Source: Candidatus Aenigmatarchaeota archaeon
Lineage (GTDB): Archaea; Aenigmatarchaeota; Aenigmatarchaeia; GW2011-AR5
Reading direction: 5' to 3'
NCBI GenBank assembly: GCA_042584825.1
Contig: JBHOSK010000002.1
Span: 1 to 60,757 of the forward strand
Length of the DNA: 60,757 bases
In this document: one piece after another, positions 6,755 through 41,116 of the stretch
How positions within the stretch are numbered: position 1 is the stretch's first letter
Layout: every line of letters begins with the position of its first letter
Translations under genes and position numbers: made by a program
The notes under the pieces: model-generated
Database searches by the model: none
What the model was told of the DNA's origin: nothing
Seen by the model: only the letters and a program-made list of their open reading frames with translations

Positions 6755-8191
6755 TCACAAATGTAAAAATGAGTCAGATGTATGTGTTTTGTTTTTTTTC
6801 ATCTTAGAGACAATTGCATTGTAATCATCTTCGAAAAAGAATTTGTCTTTGAATACTGGTTTCAAATCACTCATCCATTCAGCTTCTGGATCGAACTTTG
6901 CAAAAAATGGTCGATCAACCCAATCGGGATTTCTACCCTGAAGAAAACGCAATACAAAAACTTTTTGTTTTTTTATGTTCTGTACACCCACGACTTGCAC
7001 TTTTCCTGATTCGCAGGACATTGATGGTCCTCTTACAGTACGGGCAAGCCCACTCACATGTTCATATGCGTTTTTGAATATTTTCCATGCTTTATATAAC
7101 GGAACACCAAAATAATGCTGGGCACCAGTATCTCTTGCAACGAACATGTAATATGGTATACAGCCCAACGATATTTGTTTTTTCCACATTTCTACCCATA
7201 GTTTAGAATCATCGTTAATATGTTTCACCAAGGGTGATTGTGTTCTGATTATTGCTCCTGTTTCACGTACTTTTTCTATTGCAGCTTGTACAGCAGGCGT
7301 ATCGAGTTCTCGTGGATGATTGAAATGAGCCATTATAGCAAGATGTTTTCCTGAATCTATAATATCGGTGAATAATTTCAGAACTTTTTTTGAATCCTTG
7401 TCAGTAAGATATCTATAAGGCCAGTAACTTATTGATCTTGTTCCAATACGAATTGATTTCAGGTTAGGTAATTTAGATTCTAATAACGGACGTATATATG
7501 TTTCAAGAAATTCTACGTTCATAATCATTGGATCGCCACCAGTAAACAGTATATCTGTTATTTTTGGATGTTTTGATATGTACTTAACAAGTTTTTCTGT
7601 TTCTTGTGCCGCGAATTTCAATTTTTCTATACCTACGAATTGTGCCCAACGAAAACAGAACAAACAATATGCATGGCATGTTTGTCCTTGACTTGGAAAG
7701 AACAATGCAGTTTCCTCGTACTTATGTTGCATTCCTTCAAGTGGTTTGCCATCAACTTTAGGTACATTGTATTCCATCTGACCTGCAGGATGAGGATTAA
7801 GCTGAAGACGTATCTTGTCAGCAGTTTCTTTTATTTTTTTAGGATCTGCATTATCTTTTATTAGTTTTTCCATTTGTGTGAAGTGTCTTTTATGAAGCAG
7901 ATCCTTTTGAGGAAAATTAAGTGTAAACAAAGGATCATTAGGAACTTTATCCCAGTTTATTAATTGATTTATTACATAATTGTTTGTCTTAAACGGAAGT
8001 ACGTTTGCAACCACTTCCAGTTCTTTTAATCTTTTTTCAGGTAGTGATTTTAATTGTTTTATTTTTCTAAAATTTGCTAGAGAATATTGTTGATATTTTA
8101 GTGGTTTCACTAGTGCCATATGTTCATTATCGATTAAGTGATATAAATAAGTTCTATTGTATTCGGAGAGATTTGAGATTTTCTGTTTCAT
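6755..8191 (-). CDS. radical SAM protein, KamA (lysine 2,3-aminomutase) family
   Basis: CxxxCxxC cluster motif (CHAYCLFC), followed by FTGGDPMIM and overall KamA-like layout. 478 aa, with N- and C-terminal extensions. Confidence 0.7.
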   Translation of the reverse strand: MKQKISNLSEYNRTYLYHLIDNEHMALVKPLKYQQYSLANFRKIKQLKSLPEKRLKELEVVANVLPFKTNNYVINQLINWDKVPNDPLFTLNFPQKDLLHKRHFTQMEKLIKDNADPKKIKETADKIRLQLNPHPAGQMEYNVPKVDGKPLEGMQHKYEETALFFPSQGQTCHAYCLFCFRWAQFVGIEKLKFAAQETEKLVKYISKHPKITDILFTGGDPMIMNVEFLETYIRPLLESKLPNLKSIRIGTRSISYWPYRYLTDKDSKKVLKLFTDIIDSGKHLAIMAHFNHPRELDTPAVQAAIEKVRETGAIIRTQSPLVKHINDDSKLWVEMWKKQISLGCIPYYMFVARDTGAQHYFGVPLYKAWKIFKNAYEHVSGLARTVRGPSMSCESGKVQVVGVQNIKKQKVFVLRFLQGRNPDWVDRPFFAKFDPEAEWMSDLKPVFKDKFFFEDDYNAIVSKMKKNKTHTSDSFLHL

Positions 8192-12363: not shown

Positions 12364-12370
12364 ATGTAAT

Positions 12371-12464
12371 TGGGCCCGACGCGATTCGAACGCGCGACCT
12401 TCTGGTCCGAAGCATCGCCGATCAGATGATCTCAGACGCTCTATCCAAGCTGAGCTACGAGCCC
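12371..12464 (-). tRNA. tRNA-Arg(UCG) with a 19-nt intron at a non-canonical position (about 30/31, genomic 12414-12432)
   Basis: Hand-folded cloverleaf. Acceptor GGGCTCG/CGGGCCC, D arm GCTC-AGCTTGGATA-GAGC. The anticodon arm TCTG|G-CTTCGGA-CCAGA forms only after removing AGATCATCTGATCGGCGAT. Variable loop AGGTC, T arm GCGCG-TTCGAAT-CGCGT, discriminator A. CCA is not encoded. Confidence 0.8.
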
Positions 12465-13205
12465 ATAATAAAACATTTTTGGGTTTAGCTGTTTTTCTAA
12501 TATTTGTTTGCGATCTTTATATGTTGTATGTGGTGGACAAAATCCCCATTTTTTCCATATTTCATATCTACTGTATTTTGTATGATTTTTACATCCAATG
12601 AGTTTCATCCAATTCTCTACATTATTACCTCTTACCCAAATTCTAAATCTCTTATGCTCTTTAATGTTTTTTGGTGTATGATAATCTGTCCAATATACTA
12701 TTTGTAAATCATTAAGAACTCTTTTCATGTTAAAAAACAATGCTTTAGATATGCTTGTTAAAATCAATCGTGGATAATAATGATATCTCCTTTTGAATTT
12801 TGTGTAATTTTTATCATATCTTCTGTCGAATGTCAAACACCCATCTGTATCTAAAACTCCTCTGAGAAAAAGAGCTTTCGTCTTAATATTTTTAGATTTC
12901 AAAACAAATTTCGGAACACTGACGGTTAATGACTTTTTACCATAAGGAAACCCAAAGCCGTGCATTTTTCTTATAACTTTTTCATCTCTTATTACAAACC
13001 CGTATGTGTTTCTAGATTTAAACAACTTTCCTTTAATTTTTATGTCAAATACTTTTGAAAACAGAGGAATAACATAATTATCATAATAATCTTTCTCTTC
13101 TATAGATCCGCTTATATCTAGTTCAATTCGTTTTCCATCATTTCTTAAATATCCATCACCAGCATGTATTCCACATATCTCGGCTAGTTTTTCTTCGAAT
13201 TTCAT
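12441..13205 (-). CDS. free-standing LAGLIDADG-type (DOD) endonuclease-like protein
   Basis: Two LAGLIDADG-like motifs (GIHAGDGYL and LRGVLDTDGCL) about 100 aa apart. The last 8 codons overlap the 5' end of the co-directional tRNA-Arg. Confidence 0.65.
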   Translation of the reverse strand: MKFEEKLAEICGIHAGDGYLRNDGKRIELDISGSIEEKDYYDNYVIPLFSKVFDIKIKGKLFKSRNTYGFVIRDEKVIRKMHGFGFPYGKKSLTVSVPKFVLKSKNIKTKALFLRGVLDTDGCLTFDRRYDKNYTKFKRRYHYYPRLILTSISKALFFNMKRVLNDLQIVYWTDYHTPKNIKEHKRFRIWVRGNNVENWMKLIGCKNHTKYSRYEIWKKWGFCPPHTTYKDRKQILEKQLNPKMFYYGLVAQLG

Positions 13206-29357: not shown

Positions 29358-29473
29358 AGCCCCGGGAGGGATTCGAACCCCCAACCTTCTGATATCATTA
29401 AGTCACAGACCCGTCGGGCCTCTTAATATCAGACCATACAAGTCAGATGCTCTACCAGCTGAGCTACCGAGGC
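29358..29473 (-). tRNA. tRNA-Thr(UGU) with canonical 37/38 intron of 43 nt (genomic 29394-29436)
   Basis: Acceptor GCCTCGG/CCGGGGC, D arm GCTC-AGCTGGTA-GAGC. Anticodon arm TCTGA-CTTGTA[intron]A-TCAGA. Variable loop AGGTT, T arm GGGGG-TTCGAAT-CCCTC, discriminator U. CCA is not encoded. Confidence 0.9.
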
Positions 29474-33734: not shown

Positions 33735-33745
33735 AGGTGTTTGAA

Positions 33746-34360
33746 ATGCAACAAGAAGAAATAAAAGCAATTATGATATCTGCAGTTGTTTTAGCAGCAG
33801 CTTTTGCCATCGCAAGAGGGGGCGGTATATTTGGAGGATTCCGATTTAATTTCGTTTCATTGCTTGTTTCGTCTTTAATCGCCGTATCACTTGGTTTTAT
33901 TTTACACGAGATGGGTCATCGTTATTTGGCAAAAAAATACGGATACTATGCTGAATTTAAGATGTGGTCACGCGGACTCATTATGGCTGTGATGTTCTCG
34001 TTTTTTGGTTTTGTTTTTGCAGCACCGGGTGCGGTTGTAATACATCCAAGAGCTGATTTATATGGCCGATTTAGTCCGATAACAAAAAAGAAATATGGTC
34101 TTGTTTCATTAATGGGTCCTGTTATGAATCTCGTGCTTGTTGGTATATTTTTTGGACTGTTATTTATATTTCCAACAGGGTTTTTAGCAGATGTTTTTGT
34201 TACAGGAATGTTTGTTAATATTTGGTTAGCTCTTTTCAACATGTTGCCAGTGTTTGTGCTTGATGGTGCAAAGATTTTTGCATGGGATAGAAAAATATGG
34301 GGAGCAGTTTTTGCATTGATAATCGTACTTTTTGGTTTGTCAACTTTATTCGCTTTCTAA
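33746..34360 (+). CDS. M50-family (site-2 protease-like) membrane zinc metalloprotease
   Basis: HEMGH motif inside a TM helix (LHEMGHRYLAKKYG), the downstream NMLPVFVLDG motif, and multiple TM helices. Confidence 0.8.
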   Translation: MQQEEIKAIMISAVVLAAAFAIARGGGIFGGFRFNFVSLLVSSLIAVSLGFILHEMGHRYLAKKYGYYAEFKMWSRGLIMAVMFSFFGFVFAAPGAVVIHPRADLYGRFSPITKKKYGLVSLMGPVMNLVLVGIFFGLLFIFPTGFLADVFVTGMFVNIWLALFNMLPVFVLDGAKIFAWDRKIWGAVFALIIVLFGLSTLFAF

Positions 34361-34393: not shown

Positions 34394-35629
34394 ATGCCTG
34401 TAATCGTGGTCGGCAGAGACGAAGAAGATTTGAAGAAATATGGTGAAACAGGTACCATATACCTGGGTAAACATCTGGTTGGTACTGGTGAGGATGCTCA
34501 TACAACTACTCCTGTTAGGATGGATATCTTACGACCCCATATTGTTTGCATAACTGGGAAGAGGGGATCAGGAAAATCATTTTCTTTGGGAATTTTTGTA
34601 GAGGAAATAATGGAACTTCCCGATAATATAAGAAGTAATTTATGTAGTTTGATAATTGATACACAGGGCATTTTTTGGACAATGAAATCTGCAAATGAGA
34701 AAGATCTTTTATTACTTAATAAGTGGGATATAAAACCAAAGGCTTATGCGAATATACATGTTTCTGTTCCCGTTGGCCAGGAAAATATATTCTTCAAATC
34801 AGGTGTTGAATATGATTCAACGTTTTCTATATCACCAAATGAACTTACACCAGAAGACTGGTTAACTGTGTTTGAGCTAAAGCAGACGGAACCCCTGGGT
34901 ATTTTGTTTTACCAGATTATCAAAAAAATGAGGGGAAATTACTCTCTTGATGATATTATAAATACAATTCATGTTCAGGAGGGCTTTGCGAATGAAAAAT
35001 TGGCATTAAAAAATTATTTAGAAGCTGCAAAGGGCTGGGGTATTTTTGGCGATAGTGAGATGCCTACTATACTTGAGGGTGGAAAAACAACAGTTCTTGA
35101 TGTCAGTTTAACACCATCAAATGTTAGAGCCTTACTCGTTTCTCTTATCGGTCGAAGTGTATTTACTGAACGAGTTAAGGCAAGACGTAAAGAAGAATTA
35201 GCAGATGTTGAAGGAATTAAAATAGCACGGGTGCCGATGTGCTGGATTCTGATAGACGAAGCTCATAACTTTTTACCTGGTATAGGAAGAACACCTGCTA
35301 CAGATACACTGAATAGAATCGTTAAAGAAGGCCGGCAACCGGGGATAACACTTGTTCTTGCTACTCAGAGACCTGAGAAATTGCATCCAGATGCGCTTGC
35401 ACAGTGTGATTTGATATTATCACACAGATTAACTGCAAAAGGAGATATTGATGCTTTGAAAGCAATAATGCAGACCTACATGTTATTTGATATTACAAGA
35501 TACATCAATGAATTGCCAAAATGGAAAGGAACGGCAATAATATTGGACGATAATAGTGAAAGACTGTATAAAGTTCGTGTTCGTCCACGTAAGAGCTGGC
35601 ATGCTGGTTCGAGTCCTGTTGCAATTTAG
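34394..35629 (+). CDS. HerA/DUF87-like P-loop ATPase
   Basis: Walker A ITGKRGSGKSFS and Walker B ILIDEAHNF, followed by LATQRPEKL. Confidence 0.7.
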   Translation: MPVIVVGRDEEDLKKYGETGTIYLGKHLVGTGEDAHTTTPVRMDILRPHIVCITGKRGSGKSFSLGIFVEEIMELPDNIRSNLCSLIIDTQGIFWTMKSANEKDLLLLNKWDIKPKAYANIHVSVPVGQENIFFKSGVEYDSTFSISPNELTPEDWLTVFELKQTEPLGILFYQIIKKMRGNYSLDDIINTIHVQEGFANEKLALKNYLEAAKGWGIFGDSEMPTILEGGKTTVLDVSLTPSNVRALLVSLIGRSVFTERVKARRKEELADVEGIKIARVPMCWILIDEAHNFLPGIGRTPATDTLNRIVKEGRQPGITLVLATQRPEKLHPDALAQCDLILSHRLTAKGDIDALKAIMQTYMLFDITRYINELPKWKGTAIILDDNSERLYKVRVRPRKSWHAGSSPVAI

Positions 35630-35683
35630 CTTTTAATAATTAACTACTTTTATGTTATTGTATCTAAAAGAGGTGTTAATTAT

Positions 35684-36460
35684 ATGCATTGGGGAATGAA
35701 GAATAGATTATCGCGATTTTTAAAGCCTAAAACAGGCAAAACAGTCATGTTAGCTGTTGATCATGGATATTTCCAAGGTCCCACAACAGGATTGAGAAAG
35801 TTCTCAGAATCAATAAATCCTTTACTACCTTACGCCGATTGTTTGTTTATAACAAGAGGTATGTTACGAAACTGTATTCCTGCAGAAAACGATGTGCCAA
35901 TTTTCTTGAGAATATCAGGAGGACCAAGCATTTTAGGTGACTTATCAAACGAAGATATAACAACATCAATGGATGAGGCAATACGACTGAATGCAGTTGG
36001 TGTTGGCATGTCTATTTTTGTCGGCGCAAAAAACGAAGACAGGACAATATCAAATCTGGGAAGACTTGTAAATGAAGCCGAAAACCATGGAATGCCTGTT
36101 CTAGCAATAACAGCTGTTGGTCGTGATATGGCCAGAGACGCAAGATATCTTGGGCTTGCAACAAGAATGGCAGTTGAATTAGGAGCACATGTTGTAAAAA
36201 CATACTATTGTGACAATTTTGAGAAGGTTGTTGAAGGATGTCCAGTGCCAATTGTGATTGCAGGTGGTAAAAAGCTGCCTGAAGAAGAAGCATTAAAAAT
36301 GGCAAGAGATGCTATTGATGCTGGTGCAAGTGGTGTTGACATGGGCAGAAACATATTCCAAAGCGAAAGTCCGGTTGCAATGATTCAAGCTGTAAGAGCA
36401 GTTGTCCAAGAAAACAGAAGCGCAGAAGAAGCTTATGAAATATTCAAGAACAAAAAGTGA
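35684..36460 (+). CDS. DhnA/LsrF-family class I aldolase
   Basis: WGMKNRLSRFLKPKTGKTVMLAVDHGYFQGPTTGL ... VVKTYY ... PVPIVIAGGKKLPEEEAL ... GASGVDMGRNIFQS closely parallels the LsrF/FbaB sequence as I remember it. Confidence 0.8.
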   Translation: MHWGMKNRLSRFLKPKTGKTVMLAVDHGYFQGPTTGLRKFSESINPLLPYADCLFITRGMLRNCIPAENDVPIFLRISGGPSILGDLSNEDITTSMDEAIRLNAVGVGMSIFVGAKNEDRTISNLGRLVNEAENHGMPVLAITAVGRDMARDARYLGLATRMAVELGAHVVKTYYCDNFEKVVEGCPVPIVIAGGKKLPEEEALKMARDAIDAGASGVDMGRNIFQSESPVAMIQAVRAVVQENRSAEEAYEIFKNKK

Positions 36461-36465
36461 TAGAA

Positions 36466-37464
36466 ATGCGTGTTGCGATGTATTATAACAATAGAGATGT
36501 GAGAATCGAAGAAAAGGAAACACCTATTCCTAAGAATAAAGAAATTCTTGTTAAAGTTCATTCTAGTGGAATTTGTGGAAGCGATCTTGCTGAGTGGTAT
36601 AGAATGCCTAGAGCCCCGTTAGTACAAGGTCATGAAATGAGTGGGGAAATTGTTGAAGTTGGACCAGGTATAGAAAAGTTCAAGATAGGTGATAGGGTAT
36701 TTGTTGCACCAAAGGTTGGATGTCAGAACTGCAAGACTTGTAGTGATGGTCATGAATCAATATGTCCTAATGTAAAGGCTAGAATGCCAGGAGCATTTGC
36801 AGAATTTGTTTGTATTCCTGAGGAGCTGCAAAAGGCTGTTTTTAGTCTCCCACATGATATTAGTTATGAAACTGCAACATTTATTGAACCACTTGCTTGT
36901 GCTATAAGAGCGCAGAAGCTTGCTGGTGTTAACGAAAAAGACGAAATTCTTGTAATAGGTAGTGGGATATCTGGATTGTTACACACCAAACTTGCCAAAA
37001 ATAAAGGAGCAGATGTCACAGCTATTGATATAAACGAAAAAAAATTGGAATACGCAAGGAAGTTTGGCGCAAATACAATCCAACCGACGCTTCAAGAAAG
37101 CGTCAATTCGTCAGACAAGAAATTTAGTGTTGTTATTCTTTGTACTGCGGCTCTAAAAGCCTTTGAGACTGCATGGAAAAGTGTTGGTTTGGGAGGAAGA
37201 ATTATTTTGTTTACGGTTCCCGCACCCGATAAAGAAGTAGTGGTTCCTGTAAATGATTTCTGGAGAAAAGAAGTGAAGATAATCACATCTTATTATTGCG
37301 GTCCTGATGATTTGCAAAAATCAATGGAATACATATTTTTAAAAAAGCTAAAAGTGGATGATATGATTACACACAGACTGCCTTTGAGTGATATCCAGAA
37401 GGGTTTCCAATTAATGGCAGATGGCTCTGAATCGTTAAAAATAATAATTGAACCACAGAGGTGA
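36466..37464 (+). CDS. zinc-dependent medium-chain alcohol/polyol dehydrogenase
   Basis: GICGSDL, GHEMSGEIVEVG, structural-Zn Cys cluster (CQNCKTCSDGHESIC), GSGISGL Rossmann loop. Confidence 0.85.
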   Translation: MRVAMYYNNRDVRIEEKETPIPKNKEILVKVHSSGICGSDLAEWYRMPRAPLVQGHEMSGEIVEVGPGIEKFKIGDRVFVAPKVGCQNCKTCSDGHESICPNVKARMPGAFAEFVCIPEELQKAVFSLPHDISYETATFIEPLACAIRAQKLAGVNEKDEILVIGSGISGLLHTKLAKNKGADVTAIDINEKKLEYARKFGANTIQPTLQESVNSSDKKFSVVILCTAALKAFETAWKSVGLGGRIILFTVPAPDKEVVVPVNDFWRKEVKIITSYYCGPDDLQKSMEYIFLKKLKVDDMITHRLPLSDIQKGFQLMADGSESLKIIIEPQR

Positions 37465-37468
37465 TTGT

Positions 37469-38554
37469 ATGAATGTCGATGGTAAACATTATAGAACAAT
37501 ATGGGTTAAGGATGAAAAGACAATTCAGATAATTGATCAAAGAAATTTACCCCATGAATTTATTATTGAAGATTTGAAAACTGTTGAAGATGCTGCACGA
37601 GCTATAACGGATATGCATGTTCGTGGTGCACCACTAATTGGTGCAACAGCTGCTTATGGTATGTATTTGGCGGCAGTAAATGGCGAAGACATTGAAAAAG
37701 CTGCTGAAACTTTAAGAAAAACAAGACCAACAGCCATTGATTTGAATTGGGCTGTCGATAATCAGTTAGAAATTATAAAAAATAAAGATGATAAAACTAA
37801 AATTCTGCTTGAAAATGCAAAGAAAATTGAAGATGAATCAGCTGAAATGTGTAGGATGATAGGAGAACACGGTGTTAAGATAATTGAAGAGATTGCTAAA
37901 AGAAAAAAAGAAGAAGGAAAAGACGAAACTGTTAATATATTGACACACTGTAATGCTGGTTGGCTTGCTTGTGTTGATTATGGAACTGCTACTTCGCCAA
38001 TGTACGCAGCTCATGATAAAGGAATAAAGGTTCACATATGGGTTGATGAAACAAGACCAAGAAACCAAGGTGCAAGATTAACTGCTTGGGAACTTGGAAA
38101 ACATGGTGTTCCACACACAGTTATAGCCGACAATGTTGGTGGACATTTAATGCAACATGGACTTGTTGACATGGTTATTACAGGTACTGATAGAACAACA
38201 TATACAGGAGATGTTGCAAATAAGATCGGAACTTATCTTAAAGCATTAGCTGCTTATGATAATTTAATTCCTTTTTATGTTGCTTTGCCTTCTTCAACAT
38301 TTGATTGGTCAATTCGTGACGGTGTAAAGGAAATACCAATTGAACAAAGAGGAAACGAAGAAGTAAAATACGCAAGAGGCTTTTGTGAGGATAAGGTAAA
38401 GGAAGTTTTATTGACTCCGAAAGATAGTAATGCAGCAAATTACGCATTTGATGTGACTCCATCAAGGCTTGTGACAGCACTTATAACAGAACGTGGTGTG
38501 TGTGTTCCACATGAAGATTGCGTAAAGAAGCTTTATCCTGAGAAATTTAAGTGA
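37469..38554 (+). CDS. mtnA: S-methyl-5-thioribose-1-phosphate (or 5-deoxyribose-1-phosphate) isomerase, MtnA family
   Basis: MHVRGAPLIGATAAYG, TRPTAIDLNWAV, LTHCNAGWLA, VDETRPRNQGARLTAWEL, GTDR...GDVANKIGTY, IPFYVALPSSTFD. GAGGTGA precedes ATG 37469. Confidence 0.85.
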   Translation: MNVDGKHYRTIWVKDEKTIQIIDQRNLPHEFIIEDLKTVEDAARAITDMHVRGAPLIGATAAYGMYLAAVNGEDIEKAAETLRKTRPTAIDLNWAVDNQLEIIKNKDDKTKILLENAKKIEDESAEMCRMIGEHGVKIIEEIAKRKKEEGKDETVNILTHCNAGWLACVDYGTATSPMYAAHDKGIKVHIWVDETRPRNQGARLTAWELGKHGVPHTVIADNVGGHLMQHGLVDMVITGTDRTTYTGDVANKIGTYLKALAAYDNLIPFYVALPSSTFDWSIRDGVKEIPIEQRGNEEVKYARGFCEDKVKEVLLTPKDSNAANYAFDVTPSRLVTALITERGVCVPHEDCVKKLYPEKFK

Positions 38555-38559
38555 TTTCT

Positions 38560-39153
38560 ATGGCCGGGGAATACATCAAATTTAATTACGAGCTGGTAAA
38601 GTCGGATAAAATAAAATTAGATTCTATAAAAGAACTGAATGATTTAAGAAATAAGCTCTATGAGATGGGATTTATAGGAATGTTTAAATCCGGAGAGTTT
38701 GCTGGAGCTGGTTTTGGAAACGTCAGTATAAGAAGTGAAAGTGGATTTATTATTACTGGTTCTGGAACAGGTACAAAACCAAAAATAACAGAGAAAGACT
38801 ATGTTGAAGTTATTGATTACGATTTTGAGAAAAATTGGTTAAAATGTTTTGGTCTTACACCACCTTCTTTTGAATCTTTAACGCATGCAGCAGTGTACGA
38901 ATCCAACAAAAAAATAAATGCTGTTATTCATGCTCATAACTTGGAATTATGGAAAAAGTTACTCAAAAACAACACACCCAAAACACCAGAACACATTGGT
39001 AGCGGAACATCTGAAATTGTTGACGAAATAAAACGATTGATAAAGGAAGAAAAAGGAATAATCGTCATGGGTGGTCATGAAGAAGGTATGTTAATATTTG
39101 GATCAACGCTTGATGAAGCTTGGAGAATTCTTTTACAGTATTTCGAGAAATAA
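38560..39153 (+). CDS. class II aldolase/adducin-family protein
   Basis: GNVSIR ... ITGSGTG ... SLTHAAVYE ... AVIHAHN pattern of the class II aldolase fold. Confidence 0.75.
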   Translation: MAGEYIKFNYELVKSDKIKLDSIKELNDLRNKLYEMGFIGMFKSGEFAGAGFGNVSIRSESGFIITGSGTGTKPKITEKDYVEVIDYDFEKNWLKCFGLTPPSFESLTHAAVYESNKKINAVIHAHNLELWKKLLKNNTPKTPEHIGSGTSEIVDEIKRLIKEEKGIIVMGGHEEGMLIFGSTLDEAWRILLQYFEK

Positions 39154-40107
39154 TTATTCTATTGTGTAGTATGTCAAAACTAAACGTGGTGTGTAACCAA
39201 TATTTTCTGCATCTTCTGACCAAGGAGTATAATGGTTACCATCAGCTTCCCCCGTGGTTTTAAATCCAAGACTAAACCAACCTTTTGAAATGCTTTGTGT
39301 TATGTTGTTGTTGGCACCATTTCCTAAAGTTATGTTAATATGAGCATTTATCGGAAACTCGCTTATTGGCTTTTCTGAGTAAAATTCACCAAGAGCTATA
39401 GTATCATATAATTCTTCGTTGGTGACAAAATCATCTGATTTAGCTGGTAGGTTTCTGACTTCTACAACATCAATGCCAGAGAAACTGTGTCGTCTTAAAC
39501 TAATGTTTGCTTCTGTTATTACTGCGTTAAAAGGTAATTGAGAAATATCAAAATCAATAAAACCTCTATTTATGTTACCGTCACGATGTCCAATGTAAAA
39601 GAAGGTGTTAAACCAATCTAAAATAAATAAATTGTTTACAAATCCATCCTCAATAATAAAATCATTTTCTGGAACATCACTCCAACTTAGAGTTATTGTT
39701 TGCAAATCAGAAATTGTAACAGTTCTTGGGAAGGCTGTTGCACTTGATGATGCTACTCTCAATTGATTTGTGCCTTCGCCTGGATGTGGGCCGAATGAAA
39801 CATTTATTTTGGCAATTCCATCTTCTGTTATGTTCATGTTGTCAGATGGTATTTCCTCATTGCCTAAATAGACCTTAATATCAGTTACTATTCCTTGACC
39901 ACAGTTTCTAACATATATTCCGTCAGCAGTTACAGTTTCAATTCTCAGACATTTACTGAGACGCTCTGATTGGTGTTCTACCTGAGTTTGTGCTGTTTCA
40001 CCAGAACTCGTTATAACACCTTGGAATATGGTGAAAGCTGAGGCTGTTACTACGATTACAATAACAAGTAATAATATAATCGCTATGATTGGGGTTATTC
40101 CACGCAT
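39154..40107 (-). CDS. archaeal type IV pilin-like adhesin (tandem paralog 1)
   Basis: Class III signal peptide MRGITPIIAIILLLVIVIVV. First 137 aa are about 96% identical to ORF 40139-41116. Divergent C-terminal module FIDFDISQLPFNAVITEANISL...GWFSLGFK...PRLVLTYY. Confidence 0.8.
   Translation of the reverse strand: MRGITPIIAIILLLVIVIVVTASAFTIFQGVITSSGETAQTQVEHQSERLSKCLRIETVTADGIYVRNCGQGIVTDIKVYLGNEEIPSDNMNITEDGIAKINVSFGPHPGEGTNQLRVASSSATAFPRTVTISDLQTITLSWSDVPENDFIIEDGFVNNLFILDWFNTFFYIGHRDGNINRGFIDFDISQLPFNAVITEANISLRRHSFSGIDVVEVRNLPAKSDDFVTNEELYDTIALGEFYSEKPISEFPINAHINITLGNGANNNITQSISKGWFSLGFKTTGEADGNHYTPWSEDAENIGYTPRLVLTYYTIE
39697..40107 (-). repeat. about 411-bp near-identical segment (5' halves of tandem pilin-like genes), copy 1
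   Basis: Encodes aa 1-137, with 6 aa differences from copy 2. Similarity stops abruptly at codon ~138. Confidence 0.9.
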
Positions 40108-40138
40108 AGAAATAGTTTGTTTTCTGACAATTTAAAAA

Positions 40139-41116
40139 TTATGATATTCTATAATACGTAACAACAAGACGTGGTGCATCATCTTCTGGGTTTGTGGTTT
40201 CTTCTGTATGAAAACTAATACGATCATTTAAACCCACTGGCGGGTCATCGTCAAAGAATTTTATTCCTAAACTAAACCAGCCCTGTGAAATGGCCTTTGT
40301 CATTTCAGTTGTGGCGGTGTTTCCTAAAGTAATATTTATACGGTCACCTATTACCCAAGCAGCATTCCATGGTTCTGATGTATATAGATCACCTGCAGAT
40401 ATATTATTATAAAGATAAAGATTTTCAGCATCCATTCCGTCACCCCAATTACTTCCCTTTGGTGTGAGTTTTCTGAATTCTATATCACGATCTTCTGATT
40501 CTACAACTGATGTTATTTCAAGACTAATATTAGCTTGAGTTATAACGGCATTTGATGGTAAAGATGATGTATGAAAATCAATATAGCTTCGTGCTACGGT
40601 TGCACCAATTGATTGAAGTTTCATAGTTCCAGGACCTATACCGGCTTTAAATCCTGAGTTAATTACGTCACCATCTTCAAGAATATCGTTATAGTCTAAT
40701 TCTATTGTCTGTAAACCAGAAATTGTAACAGTTCTTGGGAAGGCTGTTGCACTTGATGATGCTACTCTCAATTGATTTGTGCCTTCGCCTGGATGTGGGC
40801 CGAATGAAACATTTATTTTGGCAATTCCATCTTCTGTTATGTTCATGTTGTCAGATGGTATTTCCTCATTGCCTAAATAGACCTTAATATCAGTTACTAT
40901 TCCTTGACCACAGTTTCTAACATATATTCCGTCAGAAGATACAGATTCAATTCTCAGGCATTTACTGAGACGCTCTGATTGTTGTTCTACCTGAGTTTGT
41001 GCTGTTTCACCAGAACTCGTTATAACACCTTGGAATATGGTGAAAGCTGAGGCTGTTACTACGATTACAATAACAAGTAATAATATAATCGCTATGATTG
41101 GGGTTATTCCCTTCAT
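40139..41116 (-). CDS. archaeal type IV pilin-like adhesin (tandem paralog 2)
   Basis: Class III signal peptide MKGITPIIAIILLLVIVIVV. C-terminal module YIDFHTSSLPSNAVITQANISL...GWFSLGIK...PRLVVTYY. Confidence 0.8.
   Translation of the reverse strand: MKGITPIIAIILLLVIVIVVTASAFTIFQGVITSSGETAQTQVEQQSERLSKCLRIESVSSDGIYVRNCGQGIVTDIKVYLGNEEIPSDNMNITEDGIAKINVSFGPHPGEGTNQLRVASSSATAFPRTVTISGLQTIELDYNDILEDGDVINSGFKAGIGPGTMKLQSIGATVARSYIDFHTSSLPSNAVITQANISLEITSVVESEDRDIEFRKLTPKGSNWGDGMDAENLYLYNNISAGDLYTSEPWNAAWVIGDRINITLGNTATTEMTKAISQGWFSLGIKFFDDDPPVGLNDRISFHTEETTNPEDDAPRLVVTYYRIS
40706..41116 (-). repeat. about 411-bp near-identical segment, copy 2
   Basis: See copy 1. Confidence 0.9.

Follow-up and report, generated by a model that had tools for sequence, protein, structure and literature searches.

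We show here that a compact operon of a Candidatus Aenigmatarchaeota archaeon is the union of two independently conserved gene pairs, one consisting of the isomerase MtnA and a divergent class II aldolase-family protein (AldII), the other of an LsrF-type enzyme and a zinc-dependent dehydrogenase. We consider the chances to be about even that this operon is a disposal or salvage unit for 5-deoxy-pentoses from 5'-deoxyadenosine, and probably also from MTA, in which both pairs take the product of MtnA. The novelty here is the presence of both proposed exits within a single operon of an archaeon with a tiny genome. The operon lies in a window of 60,757 nucleotides, which is the whole stretch of DNA analysed (contig JBHOSK010000002.1, assembly GCA_042584825.1), and comprises the following features.

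35631..35683, + strand: putative operon leader, read directly from the sequence, with a predicted promoter role.
35684..36460, + strand: LsrF-type enzyme, 258 aa, probable 3-hydroxy-2,4-pentanedione-5-phosphate thiolase (NF006081).
36457..37464, + strand: NAD-type Zn-dependent MDR dehydrogenase, 335 aa (Pfam ADH_N and ADH_zinc_N), the conserved partner of LsrF.
37470..38554, + strand: MtnA, 5-methylthioribose-1-P / 5-deoxyribose-1-P isomerase, 361 aa (NF004326, TIGR00512).
38551..39153, + strand: AldII, divergent class II aldolase-family protein, 197-200 aa (Pfam PF00596), probable pentulose-1-phosphate aldolase.

As the preliminary description of this DNA had stated, the four genes are tightly packed on the + strand, and their reading frames overlap or abut (35684-36460, 36457-37464, 37448/37470-38554 and 38551/38560-39153). 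Its family assignments of the four genes also hold in Pfam and NCBIfam searches. The leader occupies the 54-nt gap 3' of a HerA-like gene that ends at 35629, and it carries an A/T-rich TATA-like box, TTTTAATAA, at about 35631-35639 and a Shine-Dalgarno-like GAGGTG 8-9 nt 5' of the LsrF ATG. The GTG start of the dehydrogenase overlaps the LsrF stop, and that of AldII overlaps the MtnA stop. The MtnA frame opens with a TTG at 37448; its likeliest start is the ATG at 37470, 5 nt past the dehydrogenase stop and with GAGGTGA ahead of it.

The assembly contains a single IF-2B-family gene, MtnA. It scores 449 bits on NF004326 and 401 bits on TIGR00512 (cut-off 279), and with the validated DHAP-shunt MtnA of E. 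coli ATCC 25922 it shares 53% identity. The R15P isomerase model TIGR00511 matches this same gene only, with 143 bits against a cut-off of 314. The isomerase is thus MtnA-type, as had been claimed before. As stated before, the window contains no phosphorylase or kinase; MtnP, found by a genome-wide search for an MTA/5'-deoxyadenosine phosphorylase, is located on another contig (C17; TIGR01694, 290.8 bits, cut-off 274.85), next to Apt and a MiaB-like radical-SAM gene. The assembly is 65.7% complete and genome-wide absences refer to its assembled part, in which an MtnK homologue was not found. About 8-9 radical-SAM genes are present in the genome. The KamA-like gene described earlier at 6755-8191 is present, but its score of 132.8 stays below the family cut-offs (199.2). 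Together with the MtnA-type isomerase, MtnP and Apt, the radical-SAM genes support the earlier theme of salvage or disposal of pentose-1-phosphates from 5'-deoxyadenosine and MTA. MtnP would release adenine and 5-deoxyribose-1-P or MTR-1-P by phosphorolysis of the nucleoside, and MtnA, judging from its identity to the validated enzyme, would yield 5-deoxyribulose-1-P or MTRu-1-P.

A related system is the DHAP shunt of R. rubrum, E. coli ATCC 25922 and B. thuringiensis, which consists of MtnP or MtnN plus MtnK, MtnA, Ald2/DrdA and an alcohol dehydrogenase. The archaeal system has the same entry enzymes, with MtnP above its equivalog cut-off, and a class II aldolase-fold protein directly 3' of MtnA. 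The intermediate 5-deoxyribulose-1-P / MTRu-1-P and the product DHAP would also be shared under our proposal. However, AldII is not an orthologue of the Ald2/DrdA/FucA type, and an exit via dehydrogenase and LsrF thiolase belongs to no described shunt; it would give acetyl-CoA, not a free aldehyde.

The LsrF-type enzyme belongs to the DeoC/LacD-fold class I aldolase family, and the preliminary description had regarded it as an LsrF/DhnA-type aldolase. This role is not what we find; the protein is closely orthologous to the LsrF thiolase. Its best NCBIfam model is NF006081 (411 bits, cut-off 297), it is 57.2% identical to LsrF of E. coli K-12, and in a PDB search E. coli LsrF (3gkf) reached 325 bits, compared to 150 bits for MJ0400. 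Residues D26, H27, K172, Y174, G194 and G195 correspond to D57, H58, K203, Y205, G226 and G227 of E. coli LsrF, and D219, M220, G221 and R222 to D251-R254. Hence, the Schiff-base Lys203, Asp57, the LsrF-specific Asp251 and the phosphate cradle (His58, Gly226/227, Gly253, Arg254) all have equivalents. An identity as MJ0400-type ADH-synthase/DKFP aldolase was rejected on the scores (TIGR01949, 200.5 bits vs 299.45; NF005556, 210 vs 241) and on the Asp, instead of Ala, at the Asp251 position. Asp251 is also kept in 37/41 archaeal and 35/35 bacterial dehydrogenase-linked homologues, and in a quick tree E. coli LsrF is the sister of the bacterial dehydrogenase-linked proteins (SH-aLRT 100). An identity of 57-65% to a proven CoA-dependent thiolase and the conserved Asp251 argue for LsrF-like chemistry.

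In the lsr operon of E. coli and Salmonella, LsrF (PDB 3GKF, 4P2V) acts in the degradation of the quorum signal AI-2 (phospho-DPD). The equivalog score and the high identity would be in line with the same task here, unconnected with the neighbouring genes, but we regard this as hardly credible. In tblastn searches of the 65.7%-complete assembly with the E. coli Lsr proteins, homologues of LsrK, LsrG, LsrB, LsrC, LsrD or LsrR were not found; the only matches were LsrF and one generic ABC ATPase. Moreover, translational coupling ties the gene to the dehydrogenase, and 45 of the 46 genomes with LsrF also have MtnA. Compared to E. coli LsrF, the archaeal protein is shorter by about 30 residues at its N-terminus. 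All described ligand-binding and catalytic residues are conserved, and the proposed substrate, 3-hydroxy-2,4-pentanedione-5-phosphate (P-HPD), and the proposed products, DHAP and acetyl-CoA, are identical. The setting differs: AI-2 uptake, kinase or isomerase genes were not found in the assembly, and LsrF is partnered by a Zn dehydrogenase, with MtnA and MtnP as neighbours. In the lsr system P-HPD arises by isomerisation of phospho-DPD, while here it is proposed to come from oxidation of 5-deoxyribulose-1-P.

For this oxidation the dehydrogenase is the candidate. No NCBIfam model exceeds its cut-off, the top one being Tdh with 170 bits. The protein contains Cys40, His59/Glu60, the structural Cys89/92/95/103, Glu144 in an EPLAC motif, GSGISG at 168-173 and Asp191. 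We take Glu144 to be a zinc ligand of the polyol/threonine-dehydrogenase type, in place of the Cys of primary-alcohol dehydrogenases, and Asp191 to be a sign of NAD use. P-HPD is the substrate of E. coli LsrF. Since oxidation of the C4 hydroxyl of 5-deoxyribulose-1-P yields exactly this compound, we infer that the dehydrogenase precedes the thiolase: it would form P-HPD, whose acetyl group the LsrF orthologue would pass on to CoA, so that DHAP and acetyl-CoA result. Gene coupling and orthology to a proven thiolase make this exit probable, with C4 oxidation as its predicted step. In the literature searched, an acetyl-CoA-yielding route of dehydrogenase and LsrF was not found. By analogy only, threonine dehydrogenase and 2-amino-3-ketobutyrate CoA ligase (Tdh-Kbl) follow a similar logic, in which an MDR Zn dehydrogenase turns CH3-CHOH- into a methyl ketone that is then split with CoA into acetyl-CoA and the remainder. 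There, however, the cleaving enzyme is of the PLP type, while here it is a Schiff-base TIM-barrel thiolase and the substrate would be a sugar phosphate.

It had been suggested before that the dehydrogenase reduces the aldehyde released by the class II aldolase. A classical DHAP shunt with redundancy would explain the operon in this way, with AldII or the LsrF-like protein acting as aldolase to DHAP and an aldehyde, which the Zn-dependent dehydrogenase converts to ethanol or methylthioethanol. LsrF does have the fold of class I aldolases together with their Schiff-base Lys and general-base Asp, the best PDB match of the dehydrogenase is the primary/secondary alcohol dehydrogenase 1rjw, and an alcohol dehydrogenase is the last enzyme of the known shunt (PMC10986504). 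Furthermore, LsrF and the dehydrogenase are the sole candidate exit in 29 MtnA-positive genomes, to which an aldolase plus a reductase fits equally well. Nevertheless, we judge this explanation unlikely, given the identity of LsrF to the proven thiolase and its Asp251. The dehydrogenase, and with it the LsrF-dehydrogenase pair, was never seen beside the 80 sampled MtnA-AldII pairs, where an aldehyde reductase would be equally useful; in 12 Verrucomicrobia loci an aldo-keto reductase (AKR) follows AldII instead. Because the dehydrogenase is coupled to LsrF across genomes and its zinc ligand is a Glu (EPL), as is typical of dehydrogenases for secondary alcohols and polyols, it is unlikely to be simply a post-aldolase aldehyde reductase. 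On the other side, the protein is about 30% identical to both primary-alcohol dehydrogenases and polyol dehydrogenases in the PDB and thus about equally distant from both, which speaks against our preferred reading.

The other exit would be provided by AldII, which would cleave the ketose-1-phosphate to DHAP and acetaldehyde or (methylthio)acetaldehyde. AldII matches PF00596 (Aldolase_II) with 52.6 bits, and every NCBIfam model stays far under its cut-off. Within the family, E108, H127 and H129 never vary, and H176 hardly does. The AF2 model (pLDDT 90.4) has FucA as its closest fold (TM 0.62-0.67), compared to 0.55 for APIP/MtnB. The previous assignment to the Ald2/DrdA type (FucA-like, EC 4.1.2.62) could not be maintained: E. 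coli Ald2 is remote (hhalign E 1.5e-11), FucA models give 30-37 bits against cut-offs of 264-400, and the DrdA structures 6BTD/6BTG are absent from the PDB sequence matches at E<=0.01. AldII is a different subfamily that shares the aldolase fold, the His/His/His plus Glu site and the adjacency to MtnA. MtnA adjoins AldII in 67/80 loci, MtnP in 16, and there are fusions of AldII to MtnA as well as to a RuBP-5-phosphatase-like HAD. Gene context and fusions suggest that AldII is probably a pentulose-1-phosphate aldolase.

Could AldII instead be an MtnB-type dehydratase, with the operon being part of a methionine salvage pathway? In the PDB, the sequence that the family profile matches best is Aquifex aq_1979 (35.8 bits), the weak NCBIfam matches include MtnB models (TIGR03328, 36.7 bits vs 137), and AldII-like relatives from DPANN reach 65-67 bits on such models. 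All these scores are far under the cut-offs (137-226), and FucA is the closer fold neighbour. MtnD (ARD) was found in one of five other AldII-carrying genomes and not in the archaeon's own 65.7%-complete assembly, while MtnC exceeded its cut-off in 0/5. The association with an AKR and with a RuBP-phosphatase-like domain speaks for an aldolase, and altogether an MtnB function is very improbable.

In haloarchaea, the non-carboxylating pentose bisphosphate pathway employs a class II-family Ru1P aldolase that splits a pentulose-1-phosphate to DHAP and a C2 aldehyde (PMC9700705). AldII has the same fold, and in P0242 a domain of its family is joined to a HAD domain that resembles RuBP 5-phosphatase (242.9 bits, short of the cut-off of 330). 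Genes for HAD phosphatases also occur close to the clusters, namely in 8 DPANN and 12 Bacteroidales loci, and contig C5 encodes a second PNP-family protein. The operon might therefore serve general nucleoside-ribose catabolism, in which a phosphorylase gives ribose-1-P, the MtnA homologue ribulose-1-P and AldII DHAP and glycolaldehyde, while the LsrF-dehydrogenase pair handles the same sugar or aldehyde. This is improbable. On the Ru1P aldolase model AldII reaches only 24.5 bits (cut-off 300), its partner is MtnA-type and not an R15P isomerase, and thiolysis would yield glycolyl-CoA, which has no obvious fate. A context of R1P kinase, RuBP phosphatase or RuBisCO was not found in the 65.7%-complete assembly, nor were RuBisCO, AMP phosphorylase (PF00016 and TIGR03327, no match) or an R15P isomerase (TIGR00511 below cut-off). 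Thus, neither of the alternatives named in the preliminary description, an R15P isomerase with a RuBisCO/AMP phosphorylase route or MtnB in full methionine salvage, was encountered. RuBisCO occurs in LsrF carriers at the background rate (about 29-30/46 vs 190/301 overall), so that the cassette is no substitute for the RuBisCO route.

The coupling of LsrF and dehydrogenase extends well beyond this operon. Both are adjacent in 35 of 40 DPANN loci; of all 40, 27 contain MtnA, 10 MtnP and 5 Apt. In a phylum sample of 301 genomes, MtnA is present in 45/46 LsrF-positive and 32/255 LsrF-negative genomes, counts that are inflated by kinship among the genomes and weigh less in favour of the salvage reading for that reason. 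In bacterial metagenomes, LsrF lies directly upstream of the dehydrogenase in 54/80 loci, and the pair is flanked by MetK and AhcY in 4 loci and by a class II aldolase in 5. Against the salvage reading, MtnA adjoins the bacterial pair in just 1/80 loci. Since it rarely does so, another bacterial source of P-HPD is conceivable, and it may be, for example, oxidation of 1-deoxyxylulose-5-P.

Two exits from the same intermediate within one operon look redundant, which also counts against the salvage reading. Taken jointly, we hold it slightly short of an even chance that the LsrF-dehydrogenase pair is a previously undescribed exit of 5'-deoxyadenosine salvage, oxidative and dependent on CoA, and the ancestral LsrF job, and that AldII is a new pentulose-1-phosphate aldolase family. 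If this is true, the oxidative exit avoids a free aldehyde and keeps the C2 unit as a thioester. It would then be the ancestral, widespread task of the LsrF family, and the AI-2 pathway of enterobacteria would have recruited LsrF from there at a later time. AldII would be the commonest partner of MtnA, at times fused to it, outside the organisms studied so far. An ADP-forming acetyl-CoA synthetase (ACD)-like gene is present elsewhere in the genome, and its product could convert the acetyl-CoA into ATP.

To our knowledge, all organisms with radical-SAM enzymes must dispose of 5'-deoxyadenosine, and we know of few routes for it: apart from excretion, these are the DHAP shunt and side routes in methanogens and cyanobacteria. 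We infer that the operon at 35684-39153 encodes a DHAP-shunt-type pathway in a form not described before. The compact four-gene arrangement seen in the preliminary description is confirmed, with four + strand ORFs and no spacer between them:

35684-36460, + strand, LsrF-type gene, 258 aa
36457-37464, + strand, zinc MDR dehydrogenase gene, 335 aa, GTG start overlapping the LsrF stop
37448-38554, + strand, MtnA ORF, likely true start at ATG 37470
38551-39153, + strand, gene of a divergent class II aldolase-family protein (AldII), 200 aa, GTG start overlapping the MtnA stop; database copy from ATG 38560

The likely MtnA start lies 5 nt past the dehydrogenase stop, is preceded by GAGGTGA and is where the alignment with E. 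coli MtnA begins. In the 54-nt gap upstream of the operon, TATA-like TTTTAATAA and GAGGTG stand ahead of the first ATG; a sigma-70 promoter/terminator scan, a model ill-suited to archaea, returned nothing above shuffles. Directly upstream on the same strand are genes for an M50 intramembrane protease (33737-34360) and a HerA/DUF87-type ATPase (34394-35629), for which related loci reveal no tie to the operon. Two tandem archaeal pilin-like genes (39154-41116) converge on the operon end with an intergenic distance of zero (stops at 39153 and 39154). The window is archaeal, as seen from its archaeal SRP RNA and pilins, with a G+C content of ~34%, and the closest protein homologues bear DPANN names (Aenigmarchaeota, Woesearchaeota, Nanoarchaeota, Diapherotrites). 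The assembly comprises 887 kb in 41 contigs and is 65.7% complete.

The theme of 5'-deoxyadenosine/MTA salvage proposed earlier is supported by the identity of MtnA, by an MtnP gene elsewhere in the genome and by ~8-9 radical-SAM genes. The third gene scores 401 bits with the MtnA model TIGR00512 (cut-off 279) and 143 bits with the R15P isomerase model (cut-off 314), and its product is 53% identical to MtnA of E. coli ATCC 25922, where the DHAP shunt was studied experimentally. The alternative that the isomerase acts on R15P in a route with form III RuBisCO and AMP phosphorylase is not borne out by these scores, and no RuBisCO, AMP phosphorylase, second IF-2B-family gene or ARD/MtnD was found in the 66%-complete assembly, a provisional result. 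A phosphorylase, of which the preliminary description saw none in the window, is present on contig C17 (MtnP, 290.8 bits, cut-off 274.85), flanked by Apt and a MiaB-type radical-SAM methylthiotransferase. This cluster (C17:3907-6919) places a net 5'-deoxyadenosine producer beside removal and adenine-recycling enzymes, and the Apt-MtnP pair recurs next to LsrF clusters in five DPANN loci. A second PNP/UDP-family protein (C5:6810-7607), resembling AMP nucleosidase, DeoD and uridine phosphorylase with scores under every cut-off, adjoins carbamate kinase and is possibly a general nucleoside phosphorylase. The SAM synthetase gene is split over two contig ends (C18:1-669 and C15:1-483); with 60-63% identity to a bacterial MetK, the enzyme of this DPANN genome is of the bacterial and not the archaeal type. 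AhcY was not detected in the genome with a bacterial query.

The enzyme roles first assigned had to be revised: gene 1, previously read as a class I aldolase, is an LsrF-thiolase orthologue, the dehydrogenase is its partner, and AldII forms a distinct subfamily. The gene 1 product has a DeoC/LacD fold and its top NCBIfam model is LsrF thiolase (411 bits, cut-off 297), while it stays under the cut-offs of the methanogen ADH-synthase models. Among PDB entries E. coli LsrF scores 325 bits and MJ0400 150 bits. The protein shares 57.2% identity with LsrF of E. coli K-12 and retains all residues described for that enzyme, Asp57, His58, Lys203, Tyr205, Gly226/227, Asp251, Met252, Gly253 and Arg254 (PMC2728841). 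The position of Asp251 is occupied by Ala in MJ0400 and in the T. tenax FBP aldolase (Diaz et al., PMC2728841). E. coli LsrF converts 3-hydroxy-2,4-pentanedione-5-phosphate (P-HPD) and CoA to DHAP and acetyl-CoA, according to Marques 2014 as cited in PMC7828210 and to the RefSeq product name. The archaeal protein would, by its residues and orthology, share this thiolase activity. A quick ML tree places E. coli LsrF as the sister of the dehydrogenase-linked LsrFs of bacteria (SH-aLRT 100), and the window LsrF adjoins this clade with a support of 87; the outgroup placement is unstable, with one outgroup sequence translated in a wrong frame, so that we use the tree for the E. coli-bacterial sister relation only. 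Degradation of AI-2 by the window LsrF was rejected, since the assembly shows no other lsr genes; the search for homologues of E. coli LsrK, LsrG, LsrB, LsrC, LsrD, LsrR and MtnK found none in the 65.7%-complete assembly (provisional).

The dehydrogenase is a zinc MDR enzyme without an NCBIfam model above cut-off (threonine dehydrogenase 170 bits, galactitol-1-P 5-dehydrogenase 145 bits), and its identity to many solved MDRs is ~30% throughout, so that PDB neighbours favour no particular substrate. Family members with 53-56% identity occur in Deltaproteobacteria and Ignavibacteria. At the position of the fourth zinc ligand it carries Glu144 within an EPL motif, which we take to be the ligand of the polyol/threonine/butanediol dehydrogenase branch and not the Cys of primary-alcohol ADHs; Asp191 presumably marks the NAD-discriminating position, as general knowledge of the MDR family has it. 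The enzyme is predicted to act in the oxidative direction on 5-deoxy-D-ribulose-1-phosphate (CH3-CHOH-CHOH-CO-CH2OP), whose C4 hydroxyl would be oxidised. The product, CH3-CO-CHOH-CO-CH2OP, would be P-HPD, the substrate of E. coli LsrF, and the LsrF orthologue could then cleave it with CoA to DHAP and acetyl-CoA. This order mirrors that of Tdh and Kbl, in which CH3-CHOH is oxidised before cleavage with CoA, and the scheme fits Glu144 and Asp191 as well as the tree position of the E. coli thiolase. Our literature search found no paper joining LsrF with MtnA, methylthioribose, 5-deoxyribose or 5-deoxyribulose. The genome also encodes an ADP-forming acetyl-CoA synthetase-like protein (506 bits, under the cut-off of 567).

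What we observe for the LsrF-dehydrogenase cassette is orthology, conserved residues, coupled genes and co-occurrence. Genes were cross-tabulated in 301 genomes of the phylum and neighbourhoods inspected in 40 enlarged LsrF loci. The dehydrogenase gene is adjacent in 35 of these loci, and MtnA (27), MtnP (10), AldII-like (9-10) and Apt (5) genes also occur; the colinear four-gene operon of the window was not seen in these 40 other loci. Conversely, 54 of 80 metagenome loci found via the dehydrogenase have LsrF directly upstream (35 of 43 for loci of at least 5 kb), with MtnA adjacent in one of the 80. Desulfobacterota in particular often carry the pair, but without MtnA clustered beside it. 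An LsrF orthologue is present in 46 of the 301 phylum genomes, and in CPR bacteria in 0 of 301. MtnA, found in 77 of the 301, accompanies LsrF in 45 of 46 carriers (the lone exception is 75% complete) versus 32 of 255 non-carriers, counts that are descriptive and not statistics, related genomes being non-independent. The idea that the cassette replaces the nucleoside route through RuBisCO was rejected, since RuBisCO is about as frequent among LsrF carriers (~29-30 of 46) as in the sample overall (190 of 301). In four metagenome loci (L188, L189, L203, L226) MetK and AhcY lie just upstream of the cassette, a second, independent link to SAM metabolism. Bacterial cassettes have an upstream FucA/AraD-like class II aldolase gene in 5 loci and in 13 a downstream glyoxalase/VOC-family gene (124-140 aa, methylmalonyl-CoA-epimerase-like; L187, L188, L191, L194, L197, L205, L216, L219, L225, L230, L231, L233, L236). 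By analogy with LsrG its product might isomerise the diketone intermediate; no such gene was seen beside the cassette in archaeal loci.

AldII belongs to a distinct, widespread family partnering MtnA. It matches Pfam Aldolase_II (52.6 bits) with all curated subfamily models far under threshold, and homologues of ~200 aa with 37-54% identity occur in DPANN archaea, Bacteroidales, Verrucomicrobia, cyanobacteria and CPR, relatives being encoded in at least 548 genome loci of many phyla. Among the best 80 of these at least 548 loci, 67 have MtnA as the immediate upstream neighbour, 16 have MtnP a short way downstream, and none has an LsrF-like or related dehydrogenase gene within 8 kb. In the 301-genome sample, 30 of 36 AldII-family carriers have MtnA. 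Glu108, His127 and His129 are invariant and His176 nearly so, matching the Glu and three His of class II aldolases. The confident AF2 model (pLDDT 90.4) is nearest to FucA (TM 0.62-0.67), AraD (0.66), DrdA (0.61) and APIP/MtnB (0.55), and the sequence relation to the validated E. coli Ald2 is remote (hhalign E 1.5e-11), the latter being very similar to R. rubrum Ald2 (PMC6302742). We consider it fairly probable that AldII is a pentulose-1-phosphate aldolase of a new subfamily. As to the rival reading, an MtnB dehydratase in full methionine salvage, MtnB models score far under threshold and the 65.7%-complete assembly yielded no ARD/MtnD (provisional). Several observations favour the aldolase: in 12 Verrucomicrobia loci the gene right after MtnA-AldII encodes an aldo-keto reductase, MtnA-AldII fusions of 566-615 aa exist (one Atlas cluster has 171 members), and among five AldII genomes MtnD is missing in four and MtnC in all five. 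Neighbouring HAD proteins were ruled out as MtnC, being generic HAD-IA without a TIGR01691 match. No LsrF was found in five AldII-bearing genomes. Also in favour, in one fusion (P0242) AldII follows a HAD domain similar to the RuBP 5-phosphatase of haloarchaea, an enzyme that supplies the substrate of a Ru1P aldolase (PMC9700705). Another protein (P0241) carries AldII fused to a Bud32/RIO-like kinase domain.

Both candidate exits from MtnA occur in 16 of the 301 genomes, including that of the window, and neither in 18 MtnA genomes. The window MtnA is 55-70% identical to MtnAs paired with AldII and 44-53% to most MtnAs of DPANN LsrF clusters; because of this closeness, the operon looks like an MtnA-AldII unit set behind an LsrF-dehydrogenase unit. 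The cassette is co-transcribed here with MtnA and the class II aldolase-family gene, and hence is not always an aldolase replacement. One option is a division of labour, in which AldII takes methylthioribulose-1-P to DHAP and methylthioacetaldehyde and the cassette takes 5-deoxyribulose-1-P; the other is simple redundancy after gene transfer. If the scheme is true, a widespread pair annotated as "autoinducer-2 aldolase/thiolase" and "L-iditol dehydrogenase" gains a metabolic function apart from quorum sensing, it becomes clear where the lsr operon obtained its LsrF, genome-reduced anaerobes gain an energy-conserving salvage branch from acetyl-CoA to ATP, and the MtnA-adjacent family of at least 548 loci becomes a new DHAP-dependent aldolase entry. 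Elsewhere in the window, two over-long tRNA genes (12370-12465 and 29358-29473, ~95 and ~116 nt; Rfam and ARAGORN) probably contain introns.
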